From Azolla caroliniana (taxonomy: Eukaryota > Plantae > Polypodiophyta): a stretch of 64,000 nucleotides of DNA. The notes beneath the pieces were generated by a model. The model was given only the letters and a program-made list of their open reading frames with translations, was not told where the DNA came from and did no database searches. The translations under genes were made by a program, and so were the position numbers. Every line of letters begins with the position of its first letter. The first letter of the stretch is position 1. The DNA lies in assembly GCA_043228905.1 (NCBI GenBank), contig JBHGNT010000013.1, positions 4,526,001-4,590,000 of the forward strand, in the 5' to 3' direction. Positions 4,834 to 41,789 of the stretch are shown here, in pieces.

Positions 4834-5654
4834 TGTTGTCTGCCCGGCCGGACTAGCCTCAACATAGGTGTCTATCCGACACTTCTCCAAAGGGGTGGTA
4901 AGGATTGGATACTAGGTTACACGCGTAAGATGATTACAATTAAGCACAGACGGTAAACAATACGAAGATACAGATAAACATGCAATAATTACTATTGTAT
5001 TACTTCTGTCAAACCCTTTACAATTCATCGGATCCTTTTATAGGCATCCGGCAAGGTTACAATCGGTGCGCTTAGGCAACCGACATCCGAATCGGTCCGG
5101 ATTCGGATCGGTACAACTGTACCGGATCCGTCCCTCCGAATAATAATTCTACTATTATTTACTTCCTATTATCCGATCCGACTCCGCCTTGTTGGGAATC
5201 ACCGGCTTGGGTTCACCTTCTCCTCTCGGCCACAACCGAGTAATCGCGGATCAATGCAGCAGAAAATAGGAAATACAGAGAAAGACGCGATACACAGGGA
5301 TTAACGTGGAAAACCCTATACGGGAAAAACCACGGGAGTGCGAGACTCCAAACCAAACTATGCACAGAGAAATATACAATGGCGAGCTGCAAGGCAACGA
5401 CCTTGAACTCGCTGTCCTCGCCACAGGCGGCGGAAATACACAGAGGCGTCTACCTCTTCGTCTCTCTCGTACTCTATCTCTCTCTCTCTCTCTGGGCTGC
5501 TTCCTCTTCACTCCTCTTAAGTGGAAAAACAGAAAAATGAGTAGCCCCCTAAACTGTTTGCCCTAAGTCATATTTATACACATATGACTTTCAGGCTATT
5601 TACAAATATAGCCTCAAGGGCCCTTGGCAAACATATTCACAAATATGTCCCCGC

Positions 5655-5860
5655 ATCCGGATCTCTCTCCGGGTACATTCGTCATCCGGTTCCGTAACCG
5701 GGGTCTTCATCATCCGGATCCGTATCCGGGTACTCTTCATCATCCGGATCCGCATCCGGGTACTCTTCATCATCCGGATCCGCATCCGGGTATACTTCAT
5801 CATCCGGATCCGCATCCGGGTACACTTCATCCGGCTTCATGCCGGGTACTCTTCATCGTC
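5655..5860. repeat. 30-bp tandem repeat in the C LTR (second copy at ~10516-10720)
   Basis: About 4-5 units of CATCCGGATCCGCATCCGGGTACTCTTCAT. Confidence 0.9.
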
Positions 5861-5947
5861 CGGTTCCGTAACCGCAACCGGGCCTGCCGTCATTTATCTC
5901 CGGGGACATCCCATCCGGAGGGACCGAAATCCCAACAAACTCCCCCT

Positions 5948-10021: not shown

Positions 10022-10887
10022 TTTCTGCAACAGTCGCTCTGATACCAGTTTGTTGGGAATCACCGGCTTGGGTTCACCTTCTCCTCTCGGCCACAACCGA
10101 GTAATCGCGGATCAATGCAGCAGAAAATAGGAAATACAGAGAAAGACGCGATACACAGGGATTAACGTGGAAAACCCTATACGGGAAAAACCACGGGAGT
10201 GCGAGACTCCAAACCAAACTATGCACAGAGAAATATACAATGGCGAGCTGCAAGGCAACGACCTTGAACTCGCTGTCCTCGCCACAGGCGGCGGAAATAC
10301 ACAGAGGCGTCTACCTCTTCGTCTCTCTCGTACTCTATCTCTCTCTCTCTCTCTGGGCTGCTTCCTCTTCACTCCTCTTAAGTGGAAAAACAGAAAAATG
10401 AGTAGCCCCCTAAACTGTTTGCCCTAAGTCATATTTATACACATATGACTTTCAGGCTATTTACAAATATAGCCTCAAGGGCCCTTGGCAAACATATTCA
10501 CAAATATGTCCCCGCATCCGGATCTCTCTCCGGGTACATTCGTCATCCGGTTCCGTAACCGGGGTCTTCATCATCCGGATCCGTATCCGGGTACTCTTCA
10601 TCATCCGGATCCGCATCCGGGTACTCTTCATCATCCGGATCCGCATCCGGGTACACTTCATCATCCGGATCCGCATCCGGGTACACTTCATCCGGCTTCA
10701 TGCCGGGTACTCTTCATCGTCCGGTTCCGTAACCGCAACCGGGCCTGCCGTCATTTATCTCCGGGGACATCCCATCCGGAGGGACCGAAATCCCAACACG
10801 CCTTCCCACTTGTCCTTGCTCTTCTGACCGGCCAACACATGGCACGCCCGTGGGAAAGTGCCTTGCACTTCGAATCCACTCCCGGCC

Positions 10888-13800: not shown

Positions 13801-14052
13801 TTCTTCTGCTGCCTGTTGTTCGGGATCAGGCTGTGTGTGCTCTGTACGTCGTATCGCTCTTCTGTGCTTCTGCGCCTGTATGTAGGAAAATTCGTAAAAA
13901 GTGAGTCCTTCGCAGGCCTGTGTCTTATATAGTGGCTTTTGCCTCGAGCCGCCCTTTTTCGTTTCCCGCGCATGTTCCTCTCCCGCCATAATTAGTATGT
14001 CCTTTCTTGTTTGCCGCGTGTGAGTGCCCACGTTCCATGCTTTAAATAGCAA
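10888..14052 (-). pseudogene. Gypsy B 3' accessory ORF (N-terminal globular domain + long coiled coil + acidic tail), frameshifted
   Basis: ORF pieces 13249-14052, 12328-12651, 12118-12318 and 10888-11934 lie between INT and the 3' LTR on the sense strand. Homologous pieces occur in A and at 63675-63977. Confidence 0.8.
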
Positions 14053-14261
14053 GTACGCGCACGTCCTTCTTTAATGCATGGCGCCTCTTCGTTGCATGGT
14101 GGCGCTCCCACCTCTTCTGATCTCCCCATCATTACTATGATTCGCGTCGATTTTGCCCACGTCTTTTTTTTTTTTTTTTTTTTTTTTTTTCTGTTTGGAC
14201 CACTTCATTTGCTGGTCCCCCCCGATTTGTTCAGGTCGGTTCGTGTGGATACCGGATCCTT

Positions 14262-21284: not shown

Positions 21285-21810
21285 AAGGGTGTTAAGGAAA
21301 CGTTAAGAAGGCACTTGGGCTCTTCTTATGTGTGCGGCGGATTGTGTTGTGCTGGATCGTTTGGTGCTCAAACACAGAAGGGAAGGGGGAAGGAGACTTA
21401 CCTCTGTAGCAGCCAAAACTTCTTCTACTTCATTACACGTAGAGCTCTACTTGCTCTCGTCTGTTTCTCTCTTCTACTCTCACTCTCTGAGTTCTACCTC
21501 TCTATCTTCACTCTCTCTCTCTCTCAGAGTTCTACTTCCTGTGTTTCTTACTTACCTACTCCCTACTTTTTACCTAAGTAATAAGTTACTTACGTATGCA
21601 GCTAATTAGTTGCCTGTAGCTAAATAGCTGTTAGTAGCTAATTAGCTGTCAGTCGCTAAATAGTTGTTATTAGCTAATTAGCTGTCAATAGCTAATTAGT
21701 TGTTTCTTCTTTATGTTCACAAGTAGCTAAATAGCTACTATAGCTTATTTCCCAATAAGCATCACATACCATGTTGAGCTTGCTTCTCAACACTCCCCCT
21801 CAAGCTCAAC

Positions 21811-24800
21811 TTATCCTTTCTTGGGGTTATCTACAACTTCTTTTCCATGATGCTTTTCAGCCATCATATCAGTGTCTACAACTCCCATCATGTTCCGAAA
21901 CTGTGTATGCTTTTCCACACTCAATCCCTTTGTGAGAATATTAGCAACCTGCTGATTTGTATTCACATACACCAGATCAACTTCTCCTTCAATCACTTTT
22001 TCTCTAACAAAGTGATAATGCACTTCAATGTGCTTTGTTCTTGCATGGAACACTGGGTTTTTTGCAAGCTAAATGTTGCTCATATTGTCACACCAGATTG
22101 TGACAGTACCATCTATATACTCTCCCAAATCAACAATCAATCTTCTGATCCATACCTCTTCACAAGTGGCTATGGCGGCTCCTTTGTACTCAGCTTCAAT
22201 ACTAGACAATGCAACAATAGCTTGTTTCTTGCTACTCCATGAAATACCTGCACTTCCCAATGTAAACATATATCCACTTGTGGATCTTCTATCTGTTTGG
22301 CTTCCAGCCCAATCAACATTTGTATATCCTTCCAAATTTATGTCCAAATCAGCCCTATAAAACAATCCATAGTTCTGAGTAGCTTTTACATACCTCAGAA
22401 TTCTTCTAATGTAGTCCAAATGCGGCTTTGTTGGTTGTTGCATAAATTGGTTGACTAATCCAACTGCATAACTCAAATTAGGTCTTGTTATGGTCAAATA
22501 AATAAGGCTGCCCACCATAGACCTGTACATGTTTACATCTTCTATTTTGGCTCCCAAATCAGCCCTTAATTTGCAGTTTTTATCTAGTGGTACTCCAATA
22601 GGTTTGCATCCAAGCATACCATACTTTTTCAACATAGTTGTTGCATATTGTCTTTGCAACACATATATACCATTTTTAGATCTGATGATTTCAATACCCA
22701 AAAAATATCTCAGATCTCCCAAATCTTTCATATGAAATTTCATTTCCAAATTTCTTTTCAATTTACTTATTTCATCCATGAAATCACCTCCAATGATGAG
22801 ATCATCAACATAAATCAGAATCACAACAATACAATCATCTTTCCTTTTAACATACAGTGATGAATCAACCTTGACATTTTGAAGTCAAGTTTTTTCAGAT
22901 AATCTGAAAGTTCTCTGTGCCATGCTCTTGGTGCCTGTTTCAGTCCATAGAGAGCCTTTTTCAACTTACATACATAATCTGGATGCTTCCTATCTTCAAA
23001 ACCTGGTGGTTGACACATATACACTTCTTCTTCCAAGTTACCATGTAAAAAGGCATTTTTTACATCCATATGATGAAGAAACCATCTTTTGGGTGCACCT
23101 ACAGCCAGTAATGTCCTCAATGTTGCCATCTTTGCAACCGGTGCAAATGTCTCATCATAATCAATTCCTTGCATTTGGGCATATCCCTTTGCAACCAATC
23201 TTGCTTTATGTCTACTTACATTCCCACTAGAATCATGCTTTGTCTTGTAGACCCATTTGCAACCTACCACATTTTTTTCTTTTGGCAACTTCACCAAATC
23301 CCATGTTCTGTTTTCAGCCAATGCATCAATCTCTTCTTGCATTGCATCCACCCATTTCTTCTCAGTTTTAGCCTCATCAAAACTACTTGGATAAGGGATT
23401 TGTACCACCTTAGACATATATGCATAATGCATAGCCATATATGTATCATAACCAAATCTTTCAACAATTTTTTTCTCTATCTGATCTTCTCAGTTTCTGA
23501 TTTGCATCCTTCAATGCTTTTTCCATACCAGGGATTTTCAATCCTCTTATACCAAGAAAATCATCCAATGACATATCTGAATCCTCATCTTCCATGTTTT
23601 TAGACAAGTCATCCAACATTTCATACTCTGGCATTTTCTGTTTTCCTTTTTTATCATCACATTTTTTGTATCCTCCACTTTTTCCACTCCAAGAATTTGA
23701 ATCAGATTTACCATCTGAGCTTTTTGATGGTCCAGAACATTCTGTTGATGTTGGACTTTGTTGTCCAACCTTGCTTCCATCTATGTGGCAGTCTTCTACA
23801 TTTTCAGATTTGTCTCTGTCTTCAATCTCATTGTCTTCATTAGTCTCTGGATTCTGTTTTGGACTGTACCAGCTGGCTAACTCATCAAAGATTACATCCC
23901 TACTTGTCACAATCTTCTTTGTTACAGGGTTATAGCATCTATACCCTTTTTGTTCTTTTGAATAGCCAACAAAAATACATTTTTCTGCTTTTGGATCTAG
24001 CTTACTTCTTACTTCTGCAGGCACATGTACATATGCAAGGCATCCAAACACTTTTAAGTGTTCTAAACTAGGTTTCCTTCCATAGAAACACTCTTCAGGA
24101 GTTGCTTCATGTACTCCCGATGTTATACATCTATTTAGAATATAATTTGCTGTATTTACAGCTTCTACCCAATAGTACAATGGCATATTCTTCTCTGTCA
24201 TCAAAGCCCTTGCAATGTTCACCAATGTTCTGTTTTTCCTCTCAGCAACTCCATTTTGCTGTGGAGTATATCTACATGTGAACTGTCTTCTTATTCCCTG
24301 ATTGCATAGAAAATCAGAAAATTCATTGGAGAAATACTCTCCTCCTCCATCAGATCTTAAACATTTTATTCTTGTACCTGCCTGCTTTTCTACCATGCAT
24401 TTGAACTTACGAAAACATTCAAACACTTCACTTTTCTCTTTCATGAAATACACCCATGTTTTCCTTGAGCAATCATCAATAAAAGTTACATAAAATCTGC
24501 AGCCACCGATAGATGCATTCTTAGTTGGTCCCCATACATCCGTATGTACCAAATCCAACAAATTTTTACTTACATGACTTTCATGGGGGAATGGCAACCT
24601 ATTTTGCTTTCCATATTAACATGCTTCACATATCTTTCCCATTTCACAATTTTTCAATTTTGGCAGTCCAACCACTGCATCTTTTCTCAACATATTCTTT
24701 AGGGTTTGCATACTTATGTGGCCAATCCTTTTATGCCACATTTCCACATCTGAGACTACACTCATTCCATTTGCAAACATAGCTGAAATCTGTCTAGGCA

Positions 24801-25848
24801 TGTCAACATCCAAAATAAACATTCTTCCTTGTCGTTTTCCTTTTGCAATGAGCTTCCCATTCTTTTTTATATAGAATCCACTTTGCTTAAACTTTACTTG
24901 CATACCTTGCTCTACTATCTGTCCAACAGAAATCAGATTCTTAGCAAGATTTGGAACATGCATTACATTCAACATATACTTAGTCTTTCCTTTTTCTTCC
25001 CACAATGGGATATCTCCAACATGTTCTATTTGGTGAGTACTATTATCACCCGTCTGTACATAGCCAGGAATCTCTGGTTCTCTCAACCTTTCAAACCTGT
25101 TTGCATGTCCAGTCATATGGTTAGATGCCCCCGAGTCTACATACCATGTAAACTCTTCATTACATTTCTGTGAGCTTTCAGCCACTGCTGCTATCTCATG
25201 TTGTACCACAAATGCACCATCTTTTTCACAATCTTCACTAGTTTGGGCATAGTTATTCTGTTGTCTCTTTCCTCTTTGCTCATCATTTTGCTTCTTGTAG
25301 CATTCAGCCTGTGTGTGGCCTGGTTTTCCACAATACCAACAGCCATCATCATTTACATATGTTTGCTTACCTCTACCTTGGTTGCTCCCCCTGCCTCTGT
25401 TGTTGTTTCTTCCTCTAATGGTTTGTTGTCCTCTTCCTTGATAGCCATTATTGTTGGTTCTTGTTAAGCCAAATCTTCCATGGCCTCTTCCTCGGCCTCT
25501 TCCAGCACTATTATATAGGGCTTGCCCCTCATTCTCAAGATTTCCTTTATTTACATCATCCATCTGATTCCTTTCTTCTACTACAAGCATTGAAACCAAA
25601 TCTGGAAAACTTGGGATACTATCCCTTGTAAGCATAGAGGTTTTAAAGCTTTTGTATTGAGGTCCCAAGCCTCTCAAGCATATTTCTACCTTATCATCAT
25701 CTTCTATCTTTACATTGATAGAAGCAAGTGATTCACATATGCTCTTTATTTTCAAGGCATACTCATTTATTGACATCTTACCTTTTTCTAAGGTATTTAG
25801 CTCAGTCTTCAACTGTAGCTTTCTAGCTTTTGTGTTTACTGCAAACAG
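21811..25848 (-). pseudogene. Copia D gag(C-term)-PR-INT-RT-RH with stops and frameshifts
   Basis: Contains CWYCGKPGHTQAEC, WYVDSGASNHM, RSDGGGEY, MDVKNAFLHG, IYVDDL and HARTKHIEVHYHF. Confidence 0.93.
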
Positions 25849-26103
25849 TTTTGGGTAAAAGCATGCGAGTGGAAACACTATTATAGCTAATTAGCTACTA
25901 AAATGGCCATAGCTAATTAGCTATTTGTTTAGCTAGTCTTTCTTGTGGGAAAATCAAATATTTGAAAAACTAATTTATGAAAAAACTCAAATATTTGAAC
26001 TTCTGTTTCAGACGTAGTGGAACTTGGGGAATATCACCATCATCTAAGGTCGACTTCAATGTCATCAATTTCCTGTTTAGCCTAAGTCTGATTTTGAACG
26101 CAG

Positions 26104-29100
26104 ATGGAGTACTCAGAGCACGAACGCAGACGTAGCTCCCGCAACAGCAAAAAATCGACATTGCAGATTGAGAGCTACAACACAGAACCCGCTCGATCAT
26201 CGTCCAGGTATGTTTCAGTTACAGAAACCCCAAACATTTGTTTTTTCTTTTTGACTACTGTCTGAACTTTGGTGCCGATTCATATTTCCCCAAAATCAAA
26301 TAGGGCGAAGTCCTTGGAGTTCCATACAAGGATGTCTCGCAAATCGGGGAGTAGCAACAGGTGTGTTTATATTACTTTTTTTGTGTTTAATCCTGTCTTT
26401 AGTGATTAGGGTTCGTGATTGAAATTTCTGATTAGGGTTTGTGATTGAAATTTCTGATTAGGGTTTTTGATTATAAATTTCTGATTAGAATTTCTGAATA
26501 GGGTTTCTGGTTACAAATTTTGATTACAAATTAGAATTTCTGAATAGGGTTTTTGTTTATAAATTTCTGCTTAGGATTTCTGATTAGGGTTTGTGATTGA
26601 ATTTTTTTATTAGGGTTTCTGATTGAAATTTCTGATTAGGGTTTTTGATTATAAATTTCTGATTAGAATTTCTGAATAAGGTTTCTGGTTACAAACTTCT
26701 GATTACAGATTTTGATTAGGGTTTCTGATTTCAAACTTCTGATTACAGATTTTGATTAGGTTAAGTTAAAGATTTTGCACCATTTTTGTTGTTGTTGATT
26801 GGGGTTTTTGATTCTCACATATTCTGATTTTGCACTATTTCTGATTTCTGAAATGATATTTCAGATGGCTCGTTCCTCCGTATACGAGAGTGCTAAACTT
26901 CGCAAAATTTTGCGAGACAAAGGAGGACTTCCACAACACCTATGGTCTGTCACTCGAGGGTGTTGACCCTGCTATCCTAAGTGATAAATTGATCAGTGAT
27001 ATAGACTGGATGACAGTATATACAGTGCCTAGAGTCAAAGGCAAGGTCAAGCTGAAGCATGTACGAGCCGACTTGTACGATGACTGCATGAGACTGCACC
27101 AGAAAGTTCATCAGGAGATCCCAGTCAACAATGAGTTGTCAGTTTCATTTGCTAGAGCATTTGCATATGAGTACTGCAAAACAGCGAAGGAATCTAGAGA
27201 CCCTGAAATGTATAGGGTAGCTTGGGCAGTCTATGGTGAGGCATCGGTAAAAAGATGCCGAAAGATGGGGACCTTAGCACAAAAAATAGACAGATTTTGG
27301 AGCATGGCAGCTGTTGATGCAACTGCCGACTCCCAGCAAGACCGGGGGCATACACCACACCGACACCCAAGGAAAGCCAATGTCGATGATACAGGTGAGA
27401 CATTGGTTAGCTATATGCTAAAAAATGTCCATGAAGCCTGTGAGACATTGGCATTTTTTAAGACTGATTTAGAGAAAGCCACAATGGCTTCTGCAATGGA
27501 GAGCAAAGTTACTTCTGCTGTTACAACAATTAGAAATAAGATTCAGGTAACTATTGTTTTGCTGGTATGTGATTGTGTTATAAATAACGGGTAAAATGTG
27601 CTAATCAAGCATTATCTGGAATAGGTTGCGCAACAGGAGCTTGAATTAGAGGGGCCACTGGATCCCCAGCGTAAAATAGAACTGCAAATAGAGATCCAGG
27701 TTCTTTCAATGAACCTGGACCTTCTAGGTGTAAATACTGTTGCAGATTACAATTTGGATAAGCTTCAAGTAAGTTAACGATTCCTGAGAAAAGTTGGTGT
27801 ATCTTTCAACAACAAGAATAATTAATCGGTAAATTTCTCTGTTGCGTTGAAGGAACAATACATTCATCAAGAACAGGTAGTTAGCTGCCTTAAGAAGAAG
27901 CTACATTTTGTGGAGGGAATGGTAAGGACCAGACAGGATTTGGACCTGAACATTCTTGCTCCCTTACCAAATGAAGTAGAACCAGAAAATGATTTATTGA
28001 CAGTTCAAGCACGTTGCATCGCTTGCGGGTTAGGTGTGGAGGACAAAACTGCGTCTTTGTTGGTTCACCTACAACCATGCAACCACACATACCATCTGCT
28101 TTGTTTTCAACATGCCTGTCGAATTGCTGCATTCTGTTTGGGAGATTGCAGTACAACTCTACCAAATGAGTGGAGAAAACAAACAGGTATACCATACTGT
28201 AGCTAATAAGCTTAGTCTTTTCTAATTAGCTATCCTACTAGCTAATGAGCTACTAGCTAATTAGCTATCCTAGTAGCTAATTAGCTATGGTACTAGCTAA
28301 TTAGCTAGTACCATAGTTGTGTAAAAAAGCTAAATAGCTATCCTACTAGCTAATTAGCCACTGGCAACTAATTAGCTATCCTAGTAACTAATTAACTACT
28401 GCCATAGTTGTGTAAAGTAGCTAATAAGCTATCCTAGTAGCTAGTTAGCTATGGTACTAGCTAATTAGCTAGTACCATAGTTGTGTAAAAAAGCTAATTA
28501 GCTATCCTACTAGCTAATTAGCTACTGGCAACTAATTAGCTATCCTACTAGCTAATTAGCTATCCTACTAGCTAATTAGCTATCATAGTAGCTAATTAGC
28601 TACTGACATAGTTGTGTAAAGTAGCTAATAAGCTATCCTAGTAGCTAGTTAGCTATGGTACTAGCTAATTAGCTAGTACCATAGTTGTGTAAAAAAGCTA
28701 ATTAGCTATCCTACTAGCTAATTAGCTACTGGCAACTAATTAGCTATCCTACTAGCTAATTAGCTATCCTACTAGCTAATTAGCTATCATAGTAGCTAAT
28801 TAGCTACTGCCATAGTTGTGTAAAGTAGCTAATAAGCTATCCTAGTAGCTAATTAGCTACTAGCAGCTAATTAGCTATCCTACTAGCTAATTAGCTATCA
28901 TAGTAGCTAATTAGCTACTGACATAGTTGTGTAAAGTAGCTAATAAGCTATCCTAGTAGCTAATTAGCTACTGGCAGCTAATTAGCTATCCTAGTAGCTA
29001 ATTAGCTACTGGCAGCTAATTAGCTGTCCTAGTAGCTAATAAGCTATCCTAGCTACTACATAGTTGAGAAAGTAGCTAATTAGCTTTCATTGTAGCTAAT

Positions 29101-31912
29101 TAGCTATCCTAGCTACCACCATAGTTAATAAAGTAGCTAATTAGCTATCCTAGCTACTACCATAGTTAGTAAAGTAGCTAATTAGCTATCCTAGCTACTA
29201 CCATAGTTGAGTAAAGTAGCTAATTAGCTACCATAGTAGCTAATTAGCTATCCTAGCTACTACTATAGTTGTGTAAAGTAGCTAATAAGCTATCCTACTA
29301 GCTAATTAGCTATCCTAGTAGGTAATTAGCTATGGTACTAGCTAATTAGCTAGTACTATAGTTGTGTAAAAAAGCTAATTAGGTATCCTACTAGCTAATT
29401 AGCCACTGGCAACTAATTAGCTATCCTAGTAACTAATTAGCTACTGCCATAGTTGTGTAAAGTAGCTAATAAGCTATCCTAGTAGCTAATTAGCTACTAG
29501 CAGCTAATTAGCTATCCTAGTAGCTAATTAGCTATCCTACTAGCTAATTAGCTACTACCATAGTTGAGTAAAGTACCTAATTAGCTATCCTACTAGCTAA
29601 TTAGCTACTGGCAACTAATTAGCTATCCTAGTAGCTAATTAGCTGCTGGCAACTAATTAGCTATCCTACTAGCGAATTAGCTATCCTAGCGAATTAGCTA
29701 TCCTAGTAGCTACTGCCATAGTTGTGTAAAGTAGCTAATAAGCTATCCTAGTAGCTAATTAGCTACTGGCAGCTAATAAGCTATCCTAGTAGCTAATTAG
29801 CTACTGGCAGCTAATTAGCTGTCCTAGTAGCTAATTAGCTACTGGCAGCTAATTAGCTGTCCTAGTAGCTAATAAGCTATCCTAACTACTACCATAGTTG
29901 AGTAAAGTACCTAATTAGCTATCCTAACTACTACCATAGTTGAGTAAAGTACCTAATTAGCTATCATACTAGCTAATTAGCTATCGTACTAGCTAATTAG
30001 CTATCCTAGCTTCTACCATAGTTTAGTAAAGTAGCTAATTAGCTATCCTAAATAACTGTCATGTTATTGTAGAATCTTGTGGATTAAGGGCGGCACATGA
30101 TGTGTCTGGTGCTGATGATGCTGCAACAGATGAGGATACTACTGCCAATGTGGCTGAAAGTAAGTGTCCTGCTATCACATCTCCTTCAGATCAGCTGCAC
30201 CCTATTCTTTTGGAACAGTGTACTGAATTAGGCAACGATGTGAAATGCCATGAAATAGTGGAAACAACATGTAAAACTGAGGTTCACAACAACAGTGTTT
30301 ATGAACACTTGATGCAACATTTCTTCGAGTCTCAAGACCTTGATTCCACCCCACCGAGCCCAACTACTGAAAATGTCCAAACAGATCCCTCTGTACTTGA
30401 AAAGCTAGTTCAAGAAACGGCTGATGTGCAATTAGCTGCTGAGGCGATGGGAAGGTTGTCGGAGGAGGACACACTTGCGCATTGGGTCCTAGAAGCAAGG
30501 CTAAATGGGGAACCAACCAGAAAAAGGCTGAAGAAGGGGCCACGATCGAGAACAAGACCAGTTACTCGGTCAAGGGGCCCAGACGTAGTGGAGCGAAATA
30601 CTGTTTAGTTGGATATGATTGTTAGCTTAGGGATTTTGCTAGGGTTTTATGAAGTTTTACTATCCTGTTGGACAAGTAAAACCTCAGATTGGTTGTTGCT
30701 TGATCCACATTATGTAATGGAACTCTATGATGTTTTTCCAAGATAATTTGAAGAGTGTTGTTCTATGACTGAAACTCTTTGATGTTCAGGATATTGTTTT
30801 GTGAGACTAGTAGTTACTTTGTGAGTGTGAATATGTTGGTGTTTTCTGATGTTGCAGAGTCTAAAGGGTTTGATTCTATTGCTCGTAAGGCCAATGGCAG
30901 TGTGGATACTGTTGATGTTGCGGCATGTTTAAAGGGCCCCATCTTGAAAGTAGATGTAGCAACTGACACAAGTGATCTGGTCACACAAGTTGATCAAGCA
31001 TGTAGCACGGATGACTTGGTGTTGCAGGTAGATGCAACATGTAGCACGGATGACTTGGTGTTGCAGGTAGATGCAGCATGTAGCACGGATGACTTGGTGT
31101 TGCAGGTAGATGCAGCATGTGATACCAGTGGATTGATATCGAGCAGAACAGTAGCTACATGCACTGAGGTAATCCAAGGATTGATAACTAAGTCGACAAA
31201 ACAAGAGCACCAGAATGTGAAGCTAGGCCCAACACAGTCGACTAGGGGTTTAAAGAGGAAAAGGACACCAGTTGTGTCAGCCGAACCTGAGCTGATTGAG
31301 ATTGATCGTATCCTACCAGAAAATGGTGTAACAGCGGCTCAGTTTCAGGAATGGAAACCTAAACCACTAGAAGTCGAGCGAAGAGCCTTGATCTTGGAGC
31401 TGGATAAAGTCTTGATGAGTGTGAGATATATGCAGCCAAGGAGGGACGCAAATCAGTTTCTAGAGTGGGCTGCGGAGTACTTCGATTTGTTTATTTGGAG
31501 TGAAAAACCAAAATCAGATGTGTGGAAGTGTTTGGCAAGATTCTTCCCAAAATGGCGAAGTCGTTTTAAAGGTCAATGGGCACGAGAAAATTGTGAGCAG
31601 ATGGAAGCTGCAAGATTCAAGAGGCTTTCTGATTTTTGGGCTACTTGGCCTGAATATAATGCTGACAATACATTGATTTTGGATACAGAACATTTCCGAC
31701 ACTACTTCAATATTCAGAGATGCTGTCTCATTCTACCCGAGGAAATGCCTGAACAGTACCTGGTGCAAACAGTGAGCTGCCAACTAGGTGCATGGTTGTG
31801 GACTCCATACCGAGCTCAATATGCGGATAATATATGTAGACTCGTTCCACTGACTAGCAAGAGCTTAGCTGTTTATAGGAGATTTGTAGACATTTCCAAT
31901 GGTAATTTATAA
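26104..31912 (+). CDS. Predicted spliced accessory gene of E: unknown N-terminal domain + coiled coil + RING-like finger + degenerate FCP1/NIF HAD phosphatase domain (~820 aa)
   Basis: Manually built GT-AG exons, all phase-compatible: 26104-26207, 26304-26360, 26865-27546, 27625-27768, 27853-28186, 30073-30159 and 30858-31912. RING-like CIAC..PCNHTYHLLC..CLGDC. FCP1-like ALILELDKVL, FLEWAAEYFDLFIWS and NTLILDT. Confidence 0.65.
26400..26762. repeat. Degenerate TTCTGATTAGGGTTT (telo-box-like) array in predicted intron 2
   Basis: Multiple GATTAGGGTTT / ATTTCTGA units. Confidence 0.8.
28200..30052. repeat. AGCTAATTAGCT palindromic satellite array (predicted intron 5 of the accessory gene)
   Basis: Dozens of TAGCTAATTAGCTA units with ~20-bp periodicity and higher-order CATAGTTGTGTAAAG spacers. 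Confidence 0.95.
30995..31120 (+). repeat. 39-bp in-frame coding repeat (CSTDDLVLQVDAA x3)
   Basis: Visible in ORF 30779-31912. Confidence 0.9.
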
Positions 31913-32039
31913 ATATGTAAAGAGATGACATTATTCAATGAAGAATTTAATTACTTGTTCCCACTGTACTTATCTACTGTGTAATTTGAGGAATATGTTG
32001 CAGATTGTTGATTTCATTCTATTGATGACTATTTAGCTA

Positions 32040-32549
32040 TTGACAGCTAATTAGCTGCATTTGTACAGCTAATTAGCTACTGATGACTATTTCGCTATAA
32101 CTTATAACTTAAAACTTAACAAAAAAGACATGATTTTATTGAGAAAGAAGCACAGAAAGCAGACTGTATACAAGAAATTGATTCCAAACGAATTTATTGA
32201 TCTGTTTTCGCGAAATACATGTTTGTTTTACAAGAGAACATGGTAAGTGCTACTTGTAGCTACAAATTCCATGGCATACTATTGTAAATACATTTGTACA
32301 GCTAATTAGCTGCATTTGTACAGCTAATTAGCTACTGATGACTGTTTCGCTATAACTTATAACTTAAAACTTAACAAAAAAGACATGATTTTATTGAGAA
32401 AGAAGCACAGAAAGCAGACTGTATACAAGAAATTGATTCCAAACGAATTTATTGATCTGTTTTCGCGAAATACATGTTTGTTTTACAAGAGAACATGGTA
32501 AGTGCTACTTGTAGCTACAAATTCCATGGCATACTATTGTAAATACATT
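32040..32549. repeat. ~255-bp tandem duplication of the transposase 3' end and UTR
   Basis: The block ACAGCTAATTAGCTGCATTTG...CCATGGCATACTATTGTAAATACATT occurs twice in tandem. Confidence 0.85.
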
Positions 32550-35500
32550 CATACACATTAGCACCAACAGTGTATAAACCGGAGCAGCTATTGTATTCTG
32601 ACATTGGGACGTTGATGCATCTGACCAAATGAGAGTACATATACGCCGCTGGTTTGTCTTCTAACAGCCTGTACACATATTCGTAGTCATCTAGTTTTGC
32701 ATAAAAAATGCCTTCGATGTAGAATGTCCCGGCAGATACAAAATTTCCCCATGCATCTACAATATTCTGCCTTGCACACTGTTTACTAACCGTGCACTTT
32801 AATATATAGAAATCAGCACCCTCTGAATTGCCTTCTTCAGCATTTACAGCGAAGTTATCCCCAACGTTCAGGACATCACTCAAAGTATCTCCAAGTCCCT
32901 CATATGTGAAGTCAGCATTCTGCCCTGTTTCTCCATCAACTGCTTCCTTATCATTCAGAGTGTGATACTCCCAATTCTGAATGTATGCTTTGTTTAGACA
33001 ATATCTCCAATTTCCCTGCACACAATGGAAGCAAAAACAAGTAAATTCTCTAACCGCAATACAATGACCATCCAACCTGGAATAACCGCGAACAGCATGC
33101 AGAGATCGCAATTCGGGAATTCCTTGGCACTCCCAGGTCTTCTCCCTATTTACTTCATCTATCTTCACTTCCCAAAATTCACGTTTGATATCTCGAACTT
33201 GCGAGGAATAAACACCTGTGGCACTCGTCGACATATTTGTTCTTAAAAATTCAACTACATGTGATGCACAATTCATGTGCACACCATCTGTCTTTAGTTG
33301 TTCATGGGTAAGTGCCCGCTTTATAACAGCCCCTGCACCATCATGTTCACCTTTACCATGGCCAGACCCAAAAAAATTCCATCTCATCTCCAAACCTGTT
33401 ATAGCAGGATACCTCCCCACAAAATAAAATGGACGTCGAGCCTTGAATTGTGACGCAGCTCCGTCAGACCAGACCCAATGTTGAGTAAGCTCCAAACGTT
33501 GAGCTAATAACCACTGCCAATGTAACTTAAAACAGTGTTGGACGAACAAGGTATCATGCTTCTTATCATCGGAAATAAAGAAATGAATTACTTTTTTAAC
33601 ATTACCTGAAACTCGAAAATATGTTATGTGCACAAAAATGGTTACCTGAACTGAACACCAATGCATAGATTGAATTTCATTCTGCTGCTTGAAAGTATAA
33701 TTCTCTGCGAAATCTACTACTAAGACTACTACATCATTTGGGAAATCAGATATGCAAGTCTTAAACTGATGGGCCTGCCATGAATAAATGAAGTTGTGTT
33801 TAATGAACTTTCCTAGAGATACTACAAACAGAGACACCAAATCCCTTGGTTTAAGCATCTTCCGAACTAGATCCTTTCTTTTACACACCTTTCCTTCGAA
33901 ATTGGTGTTCACTGACTCAAATAACTTCACAGAGATCAATATTTCACTACTCAATTCATTTGGACACCACCTAAATCTAGTAGGGCCACAATCTTGACAT
34001 AAACCCATGACACATTTATGAATATGGAAGATAGCGTCAGATTCTCTCGGACACAATATTGAATCTAATAAATAACTCATGGAAGAGATAACGTGCTCAG
34101 ATGATTTACACTCCTCTTGCGGGCTTGATCGACAGATTTGGCACCCACATGTGCAAACTGTATTAGTTAGGGATGCGCTATGGTGACGTAGTAGATTAAC
34201 AGAGTCCTTCAGAAAACCCATCTGTACATGGTAAATGCAACAACATGTGTATCGATCCTTTAAGCGTCTCACAAAGTGTGGCTTAAGAGACTCGAATGTT
34301 CGTAGTTGAACTTTGATAGTTGGATGCATTCGTTTGAACCTAATAAATAAATCGACCTGCGTAATAAAGGGGAATTAGTTATTCTCGTAACTAGCTAACT
34401 ATCCTAGTAGCTAATTAGCTATTCTAGTAGCTAGTTAGCTATTCTAGTAGCTAATTAGCTATCATGGTAGCTAATTAGTTGTCCTAGTAGCTAGTTAGCT
34501 ATCATGGTAGTTAATTCGCTGTCGTAGTAGCTAATTAGCTATCATGGTAGCTAATTAGCTATTCTAGTAGCCAATTAGCTATCATGGTAGCTAATTAGCT
34601 GTCGTAGTAGCTAATTAGCTATCATGGTAGCTAATTAGCTGTCCTAGTAGCTAATTGGTTGTCCTAGTAGCTAATTAGCTATCATGGTAGCTAATTAGCT
34701 GTCGTAGTAGCTAATTAGCTATCATGGTAGCTAATTAGCTATTCTAGTAGCTAATTAGCTATTCTAGTAGCTAATTAGCTATCATGGTAGCTAATCAGCT
34801 GTCGTAGTAGCTAATTAGCTATCATGGTAGCTAATTAGCTGTCGTAGTAGCTAATTAGCTATCATGGTAGCTAATTAGCTATCACGGTGGCTAATTAGCT
34901 GTCCTAGTAACTAATTAGCTATCATGGTAGCTAATTAGCTGGTCTAGTAGCTAATTAGCTATAATGGTGGCTAATTAGCTATCCTAACTAATTAGCTATC
35001 ATGGTAGTAGCTATTGAGAGTAGCCAGTTACCTATGTAGTAGCTATCATAGTAGCTAATTAGCTATCATGGTAGCTAATTAGCTTTCCTAGTAGCTAATT
35101 AGCTGGTAATAACGAAATAGCTAACTAGCTACCATGATAGCTAACTAGCTAGCAGTACAGCTAATTATCTGGTAGTACCTAAATTAGCTATTGAGAATAG
35201 CTAATTAGCTATCATGGTAGTAACTATTGAGAGTAGCTAGTTACCTATGTAGTAGCGATCCTAGTAGCTAACTGAGGTAAATGTAACTGATAAGCTAATT
35301 AGCTTTTCTGCTAACTGAGCTAATTAACTTTCCGAGTAGAGTCAAAACAAATGTTGAGATAAATGTAAATACCTGAGGTACATCAAGAAGATGAATGGGA
35401 TGCTCCTCGTATTGATTTCTTCCAACACGTTTCCTGCATAAATCCTTTTTATTGGGTGAAACCCTACTCTCATTAGTCCAAAACATTGTGATTACATCCT

Positions 35501-36122
35501 TGATTTCAAATGTTATGGGTGTCATTGGCTTACATCTTGTAGTTAGCTTTAGTAGACTAGTTCCTTCACCCGAGGAAATTATACGGTTCATTGTATTGTA
35601 CACTGTTTTTATACTAACACCAATTACCTTAGATAGCTCACTGATGTTTATATCGTCAACATCACTATTAAGTAACATCATTAGACTAGACCTTTTTAAG
35701 ACAAGATCATCTTCTGACCTGCTCATGGATACGAAACTATTACGAAGATTATTTACTAAAATAGATGATATGTTTGCATTAAGACCATCACAATCAACTA
35801 AGTCCTTTATCGATGGATCATTACATATTCCATAAAGTACTACCTTCTTTTCTTCATTGTTGATGTGCTTGGTTTGAACATTGAAATAGTCTACAACCTT
35901 TCTCTCTATGATGGTAGTCGCATTACTTACATTCTCAGCTAAACTATCCTTACCTTTACTGAGTGTGGCTTTCGTATCCTTCAACAATTGACGATGTTTC
36001 CTTTTTTTTTCTGCCCAATAGTTTCGTATGGCTTGTTGTGTCCTGATAACATCATCCCTATCCTTATGATCATTGAGGGGTAATTCTAAACACCCTTCTT
36101 CCCCTTCCATTTGGCTAGACAT
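32515..36122 (-). CDS. Sola2-like DDD transposase, 2 exons (36122-35373, 34356-32515), ~863 aa, apparently intact
   Basis: Motifs VDFAENYTFKQQNEIQSMHW, FISDDKKHD, WSDGAASQFK and FFGSGHGKGEHDGAGAVIKR, plus Cys-rich zinc-finger-like segments. The phase-0 intron has CAG|GTATTT and GCAG| ends and joins LLDVPQ to VDLFIRFKRMHP. Confidence 0.85.
34388..35300. repeat. AGCTAATTAGCT 20-bp satellite array in the transposase intron
   Basis: About 35-40 units of GTAGCTAATTAGCTATCATG and variants. Confidence 0.95.
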
Positions 36123-36454
36123 GTTAAAACCCTAAATTTCCAGAAAAAAAAACAAGTATTAAAGATGGCTATGGGCAACAACAATACACAAAAATATTCC
36201 ACACAATACACAAGATTAGACACAACAATACACAAGATAATCAATAGACAGAAAAGTTATTGCAATCCAAGACCGAACAGTAGAGGATTTCACTCTGTTG
36301 GATCCAACAGTTGAGGAGGCGATCCAAGACCGACCAATGGCAACAACTGAGTGTAGAATGTTGCCGTTGGATGAGTGAACTCCGTCAAATCGAAATGTGG
36401 AAGCAATCCGGGACTGGACAGTAGTGGCAACTGAGTATAGAATGATGGCAATGG

Positions 36455-37190
36455 AGGAGAGAACCCCGTCAGATTGAACAGTTACCGATGATGCTTGAAA
36501 CGCACATAGAAGGCACTTGAGAATAGAGTGGCATAGAGAAGAGAACCCCGTCAGATTGAACAGTTACCAATGATGCTTGAAACGCACAGTAGCGGCCCCT
36601 GAGTGAGAGTGGAAAAGAGAAGAGAACCCCGTCAGATTGAACAGTTACCAATGATGCTTGAAACGCACAGTAGCGGCCCCTGAGTGAGAGTGGAAAAGAG
36701 AAGAGAACCCCGTCAGATTGAATAGCTCTTCGATTATGCTTGGAACGCACAGTAGCAACCCCTGAGTGTAGAGTGGCAAAGAGAAGAGAACCCCGTCAGA
36801 TTGAACAACTCTTTGATGATGCTTGGAACGCACAGCAGCGGCCCCTGAGTGTAGAGTGGCACAGAGAAGAGAACCCCCTCAGATTGAACAGCTCTTTGAT
36901 GATGCTTGGAACGCACAGTAATGGCCCCTGAGTGTAGAGTGGCACAGAGAAGAGAACCCCCTCAGATTGAACAGCTCTTTGATGATGCTTGGAACGCACA
37001 GTAATGGCCCCTGAGTGTAGAGTGGCACAGAGAAGAGAACCCCGTCAGATTGAACAACTCTTTGATGATGCTTGGAATGCACAATAGTGGCCCCTGAGTG
37101 TAGAGTGTCACAGAGAAGAGAACCCCGTCAGATTGAGCAGCTCTTTGATGATGCTTGGAACGCACAGTAGCAGCCCCTCAGTGTAGAGTG
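36455..37190. repeat. ~83-bp subterminal tandem repeat of E (about 9 units; about 8 more at 37636-38290)
   Basis: Unit GAGAAGAGAACCCCGTCAGATTGAACAGCTCTTTGATGATGCTTGGAACGCACAGTAGCGGCCCCTGAGTGTAGAGTGGCACA. Confidence 0.93.
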
Positions 37191-37583
37191 GCGGCAGGTG
37201 GACTCGATAGGGTTTAGCAACAGTGGTAAGCTGTAGCAACTAACCCACAGTACTCAACTAGAGATGGCCTACGTGATGTGGCAAAGGATCATGCATAATG
37301 GACCTAGGAATTCGATATATAATTTATGGTACACATTTATGGTGCACACATCAATTTATGTTGCACATTTATGGCACTCATTTACATATGTAATTAAAAC
37401 ACTCTAGTATTTTCAATGGTAGTTTTTTGCATACTTAATTTATTAATGATGGCTTTTTACTAAAATGACTATTTATCAATGGTAGCTTTTTGCATAGCTA
37501 ATTAGCTATGTCAAGGACATAGCTAATTGTTTCCACTCGCATGCTTTCACCCTACTAGCAAAACAATAGCTAATTGAGTAGTG

Positions 37584-38645
37584 GCAATCCGGGACTGGAC
37601 AGTAGTGGCAACTGAGTATAGAATGATGGCAATGGAGGAGAGAACCCCGTCAGATTGAACAGTTACCGATGATGCTTGAAACGCACATAGAAGGCACTTG
37701 AGAATAGAGTGGCATAGAGAAGAGAACCCCGTCAGATTGAACAGTTACCAATGATGCTTGAAACGCACAGTAGCGGCCCCTGAGTGAGAGTGGAAAAGAG
37801 AAGAGAACCCCGTCAGATTGAATAGCTCTTTGATTATGCTTGGAACGCACAGTAGCAACCCCTGAGTGTAGAGTGGCAAAGAGAAGAGAACCCCGTCAGA
37901 TTGAACAGCTCTTTGATGATGCTTGGAACGCACAGCAGCGGCCCCTGAGTGTAGAGTGGCACAGAGAAGAGAACCCCCTCAGATTGAACAGCTCTTTGAT
38001 GATGCTTGGAACGCACAGTAATGGCCCCTGAGTGTAGAGTGGCACAGAGAAGAGAACCCCCTCAGATTGAACAGCTCTTTGATGATGCTTGGAACGCACA
38101 GTAATGGCCCCTGAGTGTAGAGTGGCACAGAGAAGAGAACCCCGTCAGATTGAACAGCTCTTTGATGATGCTTGGAATGCACAGTAGTGGCCCCTAAGTG
38201 TAGAGTGTCACAGAGAAGAGAACCCCGTCAGATTGAGCAGCTCTTTGATGATGCTTGGAACGCACAGTAGCAGCCCCTCAGTGTAGAGTGGCGGCAGGTG
38301 GACTCGATAGTGTTTAGCAACAGTGGTAGCAACTAACCCACAGTACTCAACTAGAGATGGCCTACGTGATGTGGCAAAGGATCATGCATAATGGACCTAG
38401 GAATTCGATATATAATTTATGGTACACATTTATGGTGCACACATCAATTTATGTTGCACATTTATGGCACTCATTTACATATGTAATTAAAACACTCTAG
38501 TATTTTCAATGGTAGTTTTTTGCATACTTAATTTATTAATGATGGCTTTTTACTAAAATGACTATTTATCAATGGTAGCTTTTTGCATAGCTAATTAGCT
38601 ATGTCAAGGACATAGCTAATTGTTTCCACTCGCATGCTTTCACCC
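37584..38645. repeat. Tandem duplicate of the right end of E (copy of 36403-37552, including the TIR)
   Basis: Internal TIR copy at 37528-37552, followed by a 31-bp spacer at 37553-37583. Confidence 0.93.
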
Positions 38646-38649
38646 TTTT

Positions 38650-38954
38650 ACCAAACTGTCCCAAGCTTCTTTTGGGAGCATAGCATCTTGTATGTGCCCA
38701 AGCATCGAATCTGAGATGCTAAGTGAGAGCCAATGCATTACCTTCCTTGCCCCTTGATGCCAATCTTTGAATGCTTTAATCTGTGCTGCTGTGGCATTTT
38801 CTTATGGGATCTCCAGAACCTCTTGTAGGTCTCCTTCAATGTAATCCCAGTATCCTTTCCCCATCAGGAAATTTGGCATTCTAAATTTCCACACCGGGAA
38901 ATTGTTTTTATCTAGTTTCTCTGTAACTATTTGGCTCACATTCTCTGCAGCCAT
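38650..38954 (-). pseudogene. Copia D gag N-terminus
   Basis: MAAENVSQIVTEKLDKNNFPVWKFRM starts downstream of the PBS and joins 25848 after removing E. Confidence 0.85.
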
Positions 38955-39615
38955 TATCTCTTCCAAACTAGGTTTTCTGTTACAATTACTTCAACAAGTA
39001 ACTTTCTGATTCAGATAAGCAACCAGAGAAATACCTTTCTCAGTTCTATGCACTTCTGTACTCTTCTTTATGAGCAACTCGCTCTGATACCAAGTTAAGA
39101 AAACGTGAAGAAGGCACTTGGGCTCTTCTTATGTGCGCGGCGGATCGTGGTGTGCTAGATCGTTTGGTGCTCAAACACAGAAGGGAAGGGGGAAGGAGAC
39201 TTACCTCTGTAGCAACCAAAACTTCTTCTACTTCATTACACGTAGAGCTCTACTTGCTCTCGTCTGTTTCTCTCTTCTACTCTCACTCTCTGAGTTCTAC
39301 CTCTCTATCTTCACTCTCTCTCTCAGAGTTCTACTTCCTGTGTTTCTTACTTACCTACTCTCTTACTTTTTACCTAAGTAATAAGTTACTTATGTATGCA
39401 GCTAATTAGCTGCCTGTAGGTAATTAGCTGTCAGTCGCTAAATAGTTGTCAGTCGCTAAATAGCTGTCAATAGCTAAATAGCTGTTAGTAGCGAATTAGC
39501 TGTCAGTAGCTAATTAACTGTTTCTCCTTTATGTTCACAAGTAGCTAAGTAGCTACTATAGCTTATTTCCCAATAAGCATCACATACCATGTTGAGCTTG
39601 CTTCTCAACAAAGGG

Positions 39616-41254
39616 GAGGCCCTATGTGGGTTGCCCTTGCTAGATTTGGGCCGAGAACTCCCTGTCTGTCTGTGTCGCTCATTCCATGACGACCGGAGGT
39701 GGTGGCGTTTGCATGGAGGCTTGGCCGGTTTGGGGGTGCGGGCTGATATCTGCCTGTGGCGATGGCTCACTTGTCTGTACCGAGTCTGTCATTGTGTTGG
39801 CCTCCCCCGTGGCTACCTTCGGGTGGGCGGTGTCGTCCTTGTGTGCGTCAGTAGCTTCAGCACTCGGCCTCAGGTTTGGAAGAGTGGCTGGTGAGACAAC
39901 GTCACTTGGCACAGGGAGGCTTAAGGGCGGCTGTTGCTGCGGAATGTCGCCAATTTCTGCTCGGCGGCTTGCCATAGGTCGGTAGCCCATTTGGCTTGCT
40001 GATGTGCCATTTTGATATGTCGGGCCATGTCCTTGGCTGCCCGAGTAGTGTGGTGCAGATTGCGATATCCAAGGCCATGTTCAGATCTGGTAGTTCTATG
40101 AGAAGCGAAGCATTCTGTGCTTGCTTCTTCCGTCCTATCTTCTGTAAGGCTCGATTGTCGTGAGGTTTAATTTCACCCATTAGAGCGCGTTGAATCATCT
40201 TCGTTTCAGCGTGCTCCTCGGCCATACAAGCGGCGGTAGCTACTTGGGCGCACGCGAGGAAATCCATTAACTCATAAGTTGTGCCCGGTCGAAGTAGTGC
40301 ACTGAACTCGTATGCCTCCACGAGGAGATCTTTGTAACCGAGGACTTCCTCCTCTGATATCTATGTGGTTTGTCCATGCTCGATCGTATCGACTTGGAGC
40401 CATGACTCCGCTGGTACTATGTCCGTGGAGGTGGGGCTGGCTTGTGGGCCGTGGGCTCGGTTGCGGAGAGGTCATTGATATCGTTGTTGGTTTCTGCCGT
40501 ATGGTGACATCCTCAAGGAAGGGCTCCTCGGCCTCGTCCCATTCGACACGGGTCGCTGCTACCGCCCGTTGTCTTTGTGTTTTTGGTGGGGGTGGTGCTG
40601 AGCGGAAGTGGGGTTCCGTACGCTTGAGGGAGGTGGAGAAGGCGAGGGGTCTTCCCATTCTTCCTGGGTTATCGCCAAAATCTTCTCCCTTTGTTTCCTT
40701 GGTGGTGGTGGACAGGTCAGGATGTGACGAGGGGAAATCGGAGGGGGTGGGTAGAGGACTGTGCGGAAGTGATTGATCATAGGCAACAAATGCTTATCGG
40801 TTTGGAAGGATTCGAGCGCCACACGGACTCCTTCACATGTGATGATTCCCCAATCGATTTTGTTTCCCTCCTATGCATTGATAATGATCGCCGCTTTGTT
40901 CTGTGGCATACTTGTAGGGTTGGTATGCACGAACGCGTACTCCATCAGGATGCGAGCGATTTCTCCGAATACCTTGTTGGATCCACCGTAGGTGCGATAG
41001 GCCTTACCAGATATGGAATACGCACCAAAGTATTCCTTCAGGCTTGTGGAAGGGGGAATCTCGACTTCATGATCACCTCCTTGCTTCAGGTCCAAAGCAG
41101 CACGAATCATATTGTTGGTGACTGTGTCCGGGTGGATTAGGCGTGCAATCGCTTGGGCATCAGGGTGTGTAGGGGCATCGATCACCTTTAAATAACCACC
41201 CAATCCTCGTTCCTGAAGCCATGAGCAGGTTTCCTGTGAAGCTGCAAGAGGCAT
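39616..41254 (-). pseudogene. Gypsy A accessory ORF, N-terminal part
   Basis: EYFGAYSISGKAYRTYGGSNKVFGEIARILMEY matches B's EYFGEYSISSKAYRTQGGENLLFGEVARAMMEY. Confidence 0.82.
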
Positions 41255-41789
41255 AATGGATTCGGGGTTCTGATGTGTGGAAGATTGGGGAAGGAGGATG
41301 AGACTTGGTCGAGACAGAGTGAGGGAAGGAGATGGTTGTGGTGCAACAGAGGGGCTCCGAGGACAAGAGAGGGCTTGTGAGCAAGAGCGGTAAGAGCGAT
41401 GAAAGCACTGAGAGCAAGAGGAGGCTTGAGAGCGTGGGAGTGATGAAGGCTGGGTGTGCAAGAAAACGTCTGTGTGTGGGGTGTGCTTGGGTAACTGTTT
41501 CTTAGCGAATGCCTAGGGTTTTGTGCATGAAGAGGAGCCTGGAGATTCTTGGTCGTGGATGCCATAATAGGATATTATGGCCACGTGTCCTAGGGAGTTA
41601 GTGTTGTGCATGTGCCTTTAAATACTTAAGTGAATGTGAAAGTGACTAGTGTGTGCCTCTAAACATGATGTGATTTGGGTGATGTGGTAGGTGGTTTAGG
41701 TGGAACTAACTAATTGCTAAAACTATGCCTAATCCTACCTAATGTATACTTTGGAATGTTGGTGGGTTCTTACCGAGGGGGACACGTGG

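Follow-up and report, generated by a model that had tools for sequence, protein, structure and literature searches.

Sequence-specific accessory regulators of transposable elements (TEs) are described from flowering plants. In VANDAL elements, introns hold dense arrays of a motif that the accessory protein VANC binds, and demethylation extends to an unrelated TE bearing this motif; AT9TSD1 is an unrelated element that carries VANC6 motifs (PMC5735166). Some VANC genes hold a captured Ulp1 enzyme domain (PMC13317346), and VANC, which resembles the PMD protein MAIN, is called dicot-specific (PMC13547354; 10.1101/2024.09.27.615353). It is reported that TnpA of En/Spm (CACTA) is tied to the element termini in both transposition and demethylation (10.64898/2026.08.24.746577). 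Among Sola DNA transposons, published cargo includes Fanzor1 in Sola2 (PMC3627910) and a ParB-methyltransferase in Sola1 of Ectocarpus (Sola1-1_Ec32; PMC12477816), so the preliminary description of the DNA studied here, which took Sola for mainly transposase-only elements, was too strong on this point. Sola is listed for Physcomitrella and Capsicum (Sola1) (PMC9033089), and 2,739 Sola elements were counted in Ceratopteris (PMC6890710). Here we describe a Sola2 element with an accessory gene in the fern Azolla caroliniana. It lies in a stretch of 64,000 nucleotides (contig JBHGNT010000013.1 of GCA_043228905.1, positions 4,526,001 to 4,590,000), called the window below.

The element occupies positions 25853-38645 of the window (12.8 kb) and is bounded by TTTT on both sides. 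It contains two convergent genes, neither with an internal stop: one encodes the transposase, and the other an accessory protein with an N-terminal domain (N-domain) and a RING-H2-like finger. In fern-type and moss-type elements alike, the accessory gene keeps its place, its orientation, and the order of its domains. As in VANDAL/VANC, family-specific motifs are amplified in arrays in the noncoding DNA. This two-gene element is real, conserved, and apparently undescribed; no plant Sola2 with such an accessory gene is described in the full-text literature searched, and a Repbase annotation could exist unseen. The design of an accessory protein plus arrays is known, and the Sola2 version, with what appears to be a new protein family, is the new part. 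The features of the element are as follows.

25849-25852: left target-site duplication (TSD), TTTT, in the flanking sequence
25853-25877, plus strand: left terminal inverted repeat (TIR), 25 bp, starting with GGG, 24 of 25 bases matching the right TIR
25885-25922: two subterminal copies of the 12-bp palindrome at the left end, by motif count (starts 25885 and 25911)
26332-26360, plus strand: accessory exon 1 (ATG), a model, linked to exon 2 by a single contig (a loose end) from run X18
26377-26760: 13-bp telobox-like array in accessory intron 1 (units 26403-26760)
26865-27546, plus strand: accessory exon 2, N-domain (about 26866-27315) and start of the coiled coil (140 representatives; AlphaFold2 pLDDT 94.6)
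27625-27768, plus strand: accessory exon 3, predicted coiled coil (intron skipped in an X18 contig; intronless homolog P0139)
27853-28186, plus strand: accessory exon 4, RING-H2-like finger (weak Pfam matches, zf-rbx1 E 0.098 and zf-RING_2 E 0.27)
28187-30072: accessory intron 4, holding a palindrome array (units 28222-30051) in which 76 copies of the motif follow one another mostly at 20- and 18-bp spacing
30073-30608, plus strand: accessory exon 5, acidic then basic tail, with its own stop at 30608 or an internal phase-1 donor after 30159
30858-31912, plus strand: accessory exon 6, a linker of 13-aa repeats together with an FCP1/SCP-fold (NIF) domain that has lost the nucleophile Asp (Pfam PF03031, E 7.9e-8)
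31913-32514: 3' region common to both convergent genes, containing a tandem duplication of 255 bp and four copies of the palindrome
32515-34356, minus strand: transposase exon 2, DDD core (DFAENY, SDG, HGKGEHDG), from the Sola2 alignment and homolog search
34357-35372: transposase intron with palindrome array, 37 copies at 20-bp spacing (units 34399-35220)
35373-36122, minus strand: transposase exon 1, weak helix-turn-helix (HTH) signal (Pfam HTH_11, E 0.0018, below cutoff)
36395-37552: inner right-end copy, with the 83-bp array upstream of the transposase and an inner right TIR
37581-38645: outer, duplicated right end, with the 83-bp array, one subterminal palindrome (38589), and the right TIR (38621-38645)
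38646-38649: right TSD, TTTT, in the flanking sequence

The transposase model (minus strand, 36122-35373 joined to 34356-32515) encodes 863 aa with zero internal stops. It carries the Sola2 catalytic motifs DFAENY, WSDGAASQFK, and GHGKGEHDG (pattern DFxENY / SDG / HGKxxxDG), and the upstream Sola2 blocks RTFESLKP, CCCIYH, and HNFI also match when compared by eye with the 14-row published alignment (PMC3627910, Additional file 10). Residues of the catalytic and upstream blocks are invariant in 41 plant homologs. Exon 2 matches no Pfam family at E<=1, and in place of the Mutator-like (MULE, MuDR) transposase of VANDAL these Sola2 motifs are found. TIRs of 25 bp that start with GGG fit the short TIRs and 5'-GRG ends of Sola2; according to Bao et al. 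(2009), Sola2 termini are reportedly 5'-GRG. The TSD is 4 bp long and AT-rich as in Sola2, but in this single insertion its first base (TTTT) differs from the published AWWT. By its motifs and ends, the element belongs to Sola2 and is an intact cut-and-paste transposon from a lineage of streptophyte plants. The preliminary description had called it Sola2-like, with TIRs, a TTTT duplication, a stop-free two-exon transposase, and a stop-free multi-exon second gene, and all of this is borne out by the motif-by-motif match, the ends, and reading frames of 863 and 776 aa (the latter in six exons). With published Sola2 elements it has in common the DDD core, upstream cysteine-rich motifs, short TIRs, and AT-rich 4-bp TSD; unlike them, as far as that account describes them, it belongs to a streptophyte clade apart from animal homologs, is 12.8 kb long, and has a convergent N-domain/RING gene and large motif arrays (PMC3627910).

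Homologs of the transposase comprise 125 proteins at E<=1e-10. Among the 120 matches listed, named homologs are from Ceratodon, Calypogeia, Riccia, Adiantum, Cryptomeria, Taxus, and Klebsormidium, animal matches are far weaker, and there is no angiosperm name. The closest named matches of both the transposase and the accessory gene are from Adiantum. Relatives were compared as 80 loci (L numbers below) of at least 347 confirmed in a metagenome scan. A quick tree of 92 rows separates the animal rows from one clade of 80 rows (SH-aLRT, an approximate likelihood ratio test, 97). Within that clade, gymnosperm, liverwort, and Ceratodon sequences each have a sub-clade around them, and the window falls with L004, L007, and others in a clade of 19 rows. 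This tree left out 15 near-duplicate loci and rows shorter than 190 aa, has no Repbase Sola2 references among its rows, and shows long branches that meet among the outgroups. The ratio of nonsynonymous to synonymous rates (dN/dS) for exon 2 is 0.18 against L001 and 0.32 against L003, which indicates purifying selection; for exon 1 it is 0.76, with few changes. In L025, L030, L031, L041, L044, and L045, of the Taxus/Cryptomeria clade, the transposase intron is seemingly absent and single long open reading frames (ORFs) are found, on short contigs. Viral contigs gave 19 pattern matches, with no relative among them.

The six-exon model of the accessory gene (26332-26360, 26865-27546, 27625-27768, 27853-28186, 30073-30159, and 30858-31912) encodes 776 aa with no internal stop. 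When exon 5 is read through to its stop at 30608, a protein of 574 aa results. The exon 5 layout is repeated in L004, which has an acidic exon with its own stop, a candidate internal phase-1 donor, and a phase-1 acceptor before the NIF exon. Two accessory junctions appear to be spliced in X18, a run from a relative ("organism E") whose RNA nature is a guess. The predicted 78-nt GT..AG intron 2 is precisely missing from one contig, and in another, which is a loose end, exon 1 sequence runs into exon 2. In the search of sequencing runs, none of the holders listed is RNA, and the four rows that count as RNA do so by guess and have small shares. Run X20 had 0 contigs on accessory exons 2-4 and is uninformative.

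The N-domain, of about 130 aa, has 140 representatives at 50% clustering and a confidently predicted fold (pLDDT 94.6). Its net charge is +7, and several Lys/Arg positions are conserved. It has no Pfam match, and none of the known families among the 25 of 51 Pfam families shown for 72 accessory family members fits it. Foldseek against PDB and BFVD gave nothing at E<=0.001, an absence that does not prove a new fold; the best VIA-align Z was only 2.5 (root-mean-square deviation 5.3, 71 aligned), and ESM Atlas gave no usable match in two queries. Matching no Pfam family or solved structure, the N-domain appears to represent a new protein family. In the RING-H2-like finger, the spacing of the eight zinc ligands (CxxC, CxH, HxxC, and a final Cys pair) is kept in the window and most of nine homologs, and the ligands are also kept in moss-type loci. 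The best Pfam score for this finger (zf-RING_2, E 8e-4, in P0240) is still below cutoff.

The NIF domain of exon 6 scores 32.6 bits against PF03031 (cutoff 21.8), and its model (pLDDT 78.8) is matched by Foldseek at probability 1.00 to Tim50 (E 1.7e-6) and to SCP2 and UBLCP1 (about 2e-5). In these respects it is like the FCP1/SCP phosphatases of the HAD group, Tim50, and UBLCP1. Unlike FCP1/SCP phosphatases, it is fused behind a RING finger in a transposon, and its DxDx(T/V) nucleophile motif is altered, to E-L-D-K-V in the window and P0123 and to D-L-N-G in L004, L007, P0218, and P0273, so the domain is probably catalytically inactive. A PDB sequence search with the NIF exon gave 0 matches, and with L004 added only UBLCP1 at E 0.67. 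NCBIfam gave only sub-cutoff Dullard-like and HAD-IIID matches, in L004 and L007.

How widely the gene pair is kept can be seen from the relatives. A convergent NIF ORF lies beside the transposase in L004 and L007 (transposases 48% and 44% identical), and P0218 and P0273, gene models of Adiantum nelumboides, have the same order of N-domain, coiled region, RING, and NIF. All nine named proteins among the first 10 N-domain homologs looked up are hypothetical proteins of A. nelumboides, and 5 of the next 10 are from Adiantum. A profile from 81 N-domain representatives, without locus sequences, finds L065, L026, and L013; the 81 came from a search whose query alignment included four locus pieces, a small bias. 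With a profile from the window and its close homologs alone, no moss-type locus is found at E<0.5, and the wider fern profile is needed. Moss and fern N-domain profiles match each other with an HHalign probability of 98.2% (E 4.9e-14). The iterated N-domain profile matches 12 loci (9 distinct). In each of them the match is on the strand opposite to the transposase and 4-9 kb downstream of it, and none is upstream or on the same strand; the chance of such placement is p about 7e-4 (six non-seed elements). Among loci with at least 8 kb downstream, 11 of 21 have the N-domain, or 8 of 17 after merging near-identical pairs, and L013 is a ninth. The fern RING profile matches 5 loci (3 distinct), all on the minus strand. 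The FCP1/SCP-fold domain is optional and probably fern-only. Conservation of the second gene in other copies, for which the preliminary description had asked, is thus found in fern-type and moss-type loci and in Adiantum proteins.

A search for TIRs and TSDs in 34 loci found no convincing ends, and therefore the accessory gene is placed inside TIRs in the window copy only. In DNA runs X10, X15, and X16, which carry three other labels, 30 of 30 bins of the compared stretches are covered. Single contigs in X15 and X18 join accessory exon 6 to transposase sequence across deletions; therefore both genes are on one molecule in these relatives. Differences of X18 in accessory exon 2 show a synonymous excess (15 of 25 listed, against 22-30% expected; p 5e-5 to 2e-3). 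L002 has an acidic tail ORF without a NIF exon at 7110-8892, and three near-identical short repeated segments further upstream in its accessory gene. In P0178, P0185, P0187, P0256, and P0267, the N-domain is fused to retrotransposon-like pieces (four of the five were looked up, all Adiantum); these fusions are probably mis-joined predictions over nested insertions.

Three types of arrays are found in the element: the 13-bp telobox-like array, 18-20-bp units around the 12-bp palindrome, and the 83-bp tandem unit (36418-38292). They had been described as confined to noncoding parts, which is true of these three large arrays, but a 39-bp repeat (3.2 copies, 30997-31120) lies inside the coding sequence of accessory exon 6. 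With at most one mismatch, the palindrome has 133 matches in the window, of which 121 are in noncoding DNA of the element: accessory intron 4 holds 76, the transposase intron 37, the stretch between the genes 4, and the terminal regions another 4 (two at the left end and one in either copy of the right end). There are 0 in the 5,372 coding bases of the element and 0 in the other 50,186 bases of the window. The remaining 12 are in the long terminal repeats (LTRs) of the Copia element whose gag frame the Sola2 element interrupts, six per LTR.

21290-21792, minus strand: 3' LTR of the host Copia, 6 palindrome copies
39093-39610, minus strand: 5' LTR of the host Copia, 6 palindrome copies

The palindrome is in both LTRs, and therefore the motif predates the insertion of that Copia. 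The most frequent 10-mer is counted 173 times; shuffled sequence gives no more than 3. The accessory intron 1 array holds 6 of the 14 telobox matches of the window. Tandem arrays occupy the same transposase intron in many loci, with differing units. For example, L002, L004, L005, L006, L008, and L049 have different motifs, several of them palindromic, in the transposase intron or other noncoding parts. Among fern-type loci the enriched motif differs from one locus to the next; those of L004, L008, L049, and L063 are palindromes, and those of L002 and L007 are not. The motif of the window is found in only one of the 80 loci (L001, with 29 copies in the transposase intron).

We infer that the accessory protein may bind the arrays of its family through the N-domain and keep the element expressed through the RING finger, acting on local chromatin or silencing proteins; we hold this, the likeliest of the readings, tentatively, at close to even chances. 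The 12-bp palindrome would be recognized by the basic N-domain, probably with the protein dimerized via the coiled coil. Local occupancy would rise through the arrays in the two long introns and next to each TIR, as it does with motif density for VANC. The RING-H2 finger would be a ubiquitin ligase acting on a nearby host factor, and an alternatively spliced, fern-only isoform would add the probably inactive FCP1/SCP-fold domain as a phospho-protein binder or decoy. Copia LTRs carrying the palindrome would be hitch-hikers on the accessory system, and they are reminiscent of AT9TSD1.

In its parts, the element may be compared with several systems. Like VANDAL/VANC/KIU, it has an accessory gene, intronic and upstream tandem motif arrays, and family-specific motifs (PMC5735166, PMC13317346, PMC13547354), as well as peptide repeats in a variable region, a captured enzyme-like domain, and a motif common to an unrelated TE. 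Unlike VANDAL, it belongs to another transposase superfamily, has TIRs, and has a palindromic rather than oriented motif. Unlike VANC as published, the accessory protein has RING and FCP1-like domains instead of Ulp1 and is found in ferns and mosses rather than dicots. DUF1985, DUF287, and PMD are not among the 25 of 51 Pfam families shown for the 72 members. The PDB search gave no VANC-like fold match for the N-domain, the VANC21 entry 9LNK not being confirmed among the chains compared. With no detectable relation of the proteins, the likeness to VANC would be analogy, not homology. Like TnpA, the system has motif copies beside both termini (25885, 25911, and 38589); unlike TnpA, whose tandem HTH domains are derived from a transposase, the accessory protein is encoded by a separate convergent gene (10.64898/2026.08.24.746577), and no HTH was found in Pfam scans of the accessory exons or by fold match. 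Like Sola1-1_Ec32, this is a giant Sola whose accessory gene, on the opposite strand, is proposed to act on the chromatin of the element itself; it is, however, Sola2 and not Sola1, with an entirely different accessory protein (PMC12477816). The element would thus parallel VANDAL/VANC and Spm/TnpA while being built of unrelated parts.

Several observations weigh against an anti-silencing role. The palindrome also adjoins both TIRs, the usual binding place of a transposase, and a 2026 preprint reports that a transposase needs no partner to bind the element that encodes it and strip its methylation (10.64898/2026.08.24.746577). Neither Pfam nor Foldseek nor VIA-align relates the N-domain to a known DNA-binding family or fold, and the RING match of the window copy is below the Pfam cutoff. 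Only weak 10-mer enrichment is seen in several moss-type loci. Neutral evolution of the second gene had been named in advance as telling against the idea; a synonymous excess is found in the partial X18 data, but X16 differences in exons 2-4 (10 of 27 synonymous) are not significant (p 0.05-0.27), and the selection counts rest on 40 listed of 71 differing sites. The other outcomes so named, a transposase of a well-known plant superfamily with this cargo and absence of the gene from other copies, were not found outright either; yet 9 of 17 distinct long loci have no N-domain match (many copies are decayed), the NIF profile picks out no more than 2 of the 80 loci, each of them part of the seed, and NIF is not found in L002, whose transposase is 60% identical.

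The main rival to anti-silencing is a role in transposition. The accessory protein would be a cofactor, it or the transposase would bind the subterminal palindromes for the transpososome, the intronic arrays would be loading sites or by-products, and anti-silencing would be secondary or transposase-borne. PIF/Harbinger, for example, has a Myb-type partner protein that serves as transposition cofactor. We consider such a role unlikely but a serious contender, given palindromes directly inside both TIRs, the weak HTH in transposase exon 1, and a two-gene layout kept from moss-type to fern-type elements. It also fits reports that TnpA is required for transposition and that the AtMu1 transposase alone activates its own copies (10.64898/2026.08.24.746577). 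Insertion into a motif-bearing Copia could reflect motif-guided targeting, although a single insertion cannot show targeting. However, 113 of the 121 palindromes of the element lie in introns, far from the ends, and the RING finger and phosphatase-like domain have no obvious part in DNA cutting; no such domain was seen in the animal Sola2 homologs inspected, as proteins.

Binding of the arrays by host factors, or arrays that are merely unstable repeats, would leave the accessory protein to act in trans without DNA binding, e.g., as a ubiquitin ligase or decoy against silencing or an RNA polymerase II regulator. This seems unlikely, slightly more so than a role in transposition. A palindrome in unrelated Copia LTRs is what is expected of a host transcription-factor site, the teloboxes of intron 1 are a known host motif (consensus quoted in 10.1101/2024.09.27.615353), and the N-domain has no DNA-binding relative; but motifs that differ between families, with that of the window in a single one of the 80 loci, fit an element-encoded reader better than one host factor, and the conserved basic residues of the N-domain point the same way. 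That the second gene is a one-off captured host fragment (Pack-type) evolving neutrally is very improbable. NIF is degenerate here, not found in L002, and probably taken from a host gene, as such a capture would have it, but fern-type and moss-type elements agree in where the gene lies, how it is oriented, and how its domains are ordered, and together with frames still open in diverged copies, the splicing, and the synonymous excess this largely refutes it.

If the anti-silencing reading is right, its fullest form would be an independent sequence-addressed system that arose before mosses and ferns split. It would combine a new DNA-binding fold, a ubiquitin ligase, an optional fern pseudo-phosphatase with the fold of RNA polymerase II CTD phosphatases, and family-specific co-evolving palindromes, and would be exploited by a Copia that copied the motif into its LTRs; as a whole this is possible but doubtful. 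VANC and TnpA are known from flowering plants, and an accessory gene with family-specific arrays in fern and moss suggests a separate, much earlier origin of the design from other parts. The system is directly testable in moss and fern models. It provides a domain of about 130 aa that folds confidently and has no relative among solved structures, and it says what many fern proteins are that now stand as hypothetical products of host genes. Should the binding be real, the pairs of protein and motif, each specific to its family, would form a natural set of programmable modules for targeting chromatin, and the Copia LTR with the motif would be a case in which one transposon exploits the defence of another.

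The right ~1.1 kb of the element is present twice, and the second, inner right TIR ends at 37552. The right-end copies differ by 6 substitutions and two indels, which makes an assembly artefact unlikely as their source. Between them, a spacer of about 28 bp (37553-37580) resembles left subterminal sequence in reverse and seems to have arisen through gap repair or aberrant transposition. The host Copia lies at 21290-25852 and 38646-39610; its two LTRs share 95% identity across 499 aligned bases, and a 5-bp duplication flanks them. Its internal region is nearly without CpG (observed/expected 0.09-0.17), against about 1.0 in the Gypsy and other Copia measured in the window. At 13249-14070 and 40871-41512, beside Gypsy-type coding regions, lie two related accessory ORFs that share 43% identity; the former matches no Pfam family, and a link of these ORFs to the Sola N-domain is unsupported (HHalign probability 0.2%, two-sequence profile). 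A young, apparently intact Copia at 5189-10798 has a 1387-aa ORF, LTRs that are 99.9% identical, and a 30-bp tandem array in each LTR.

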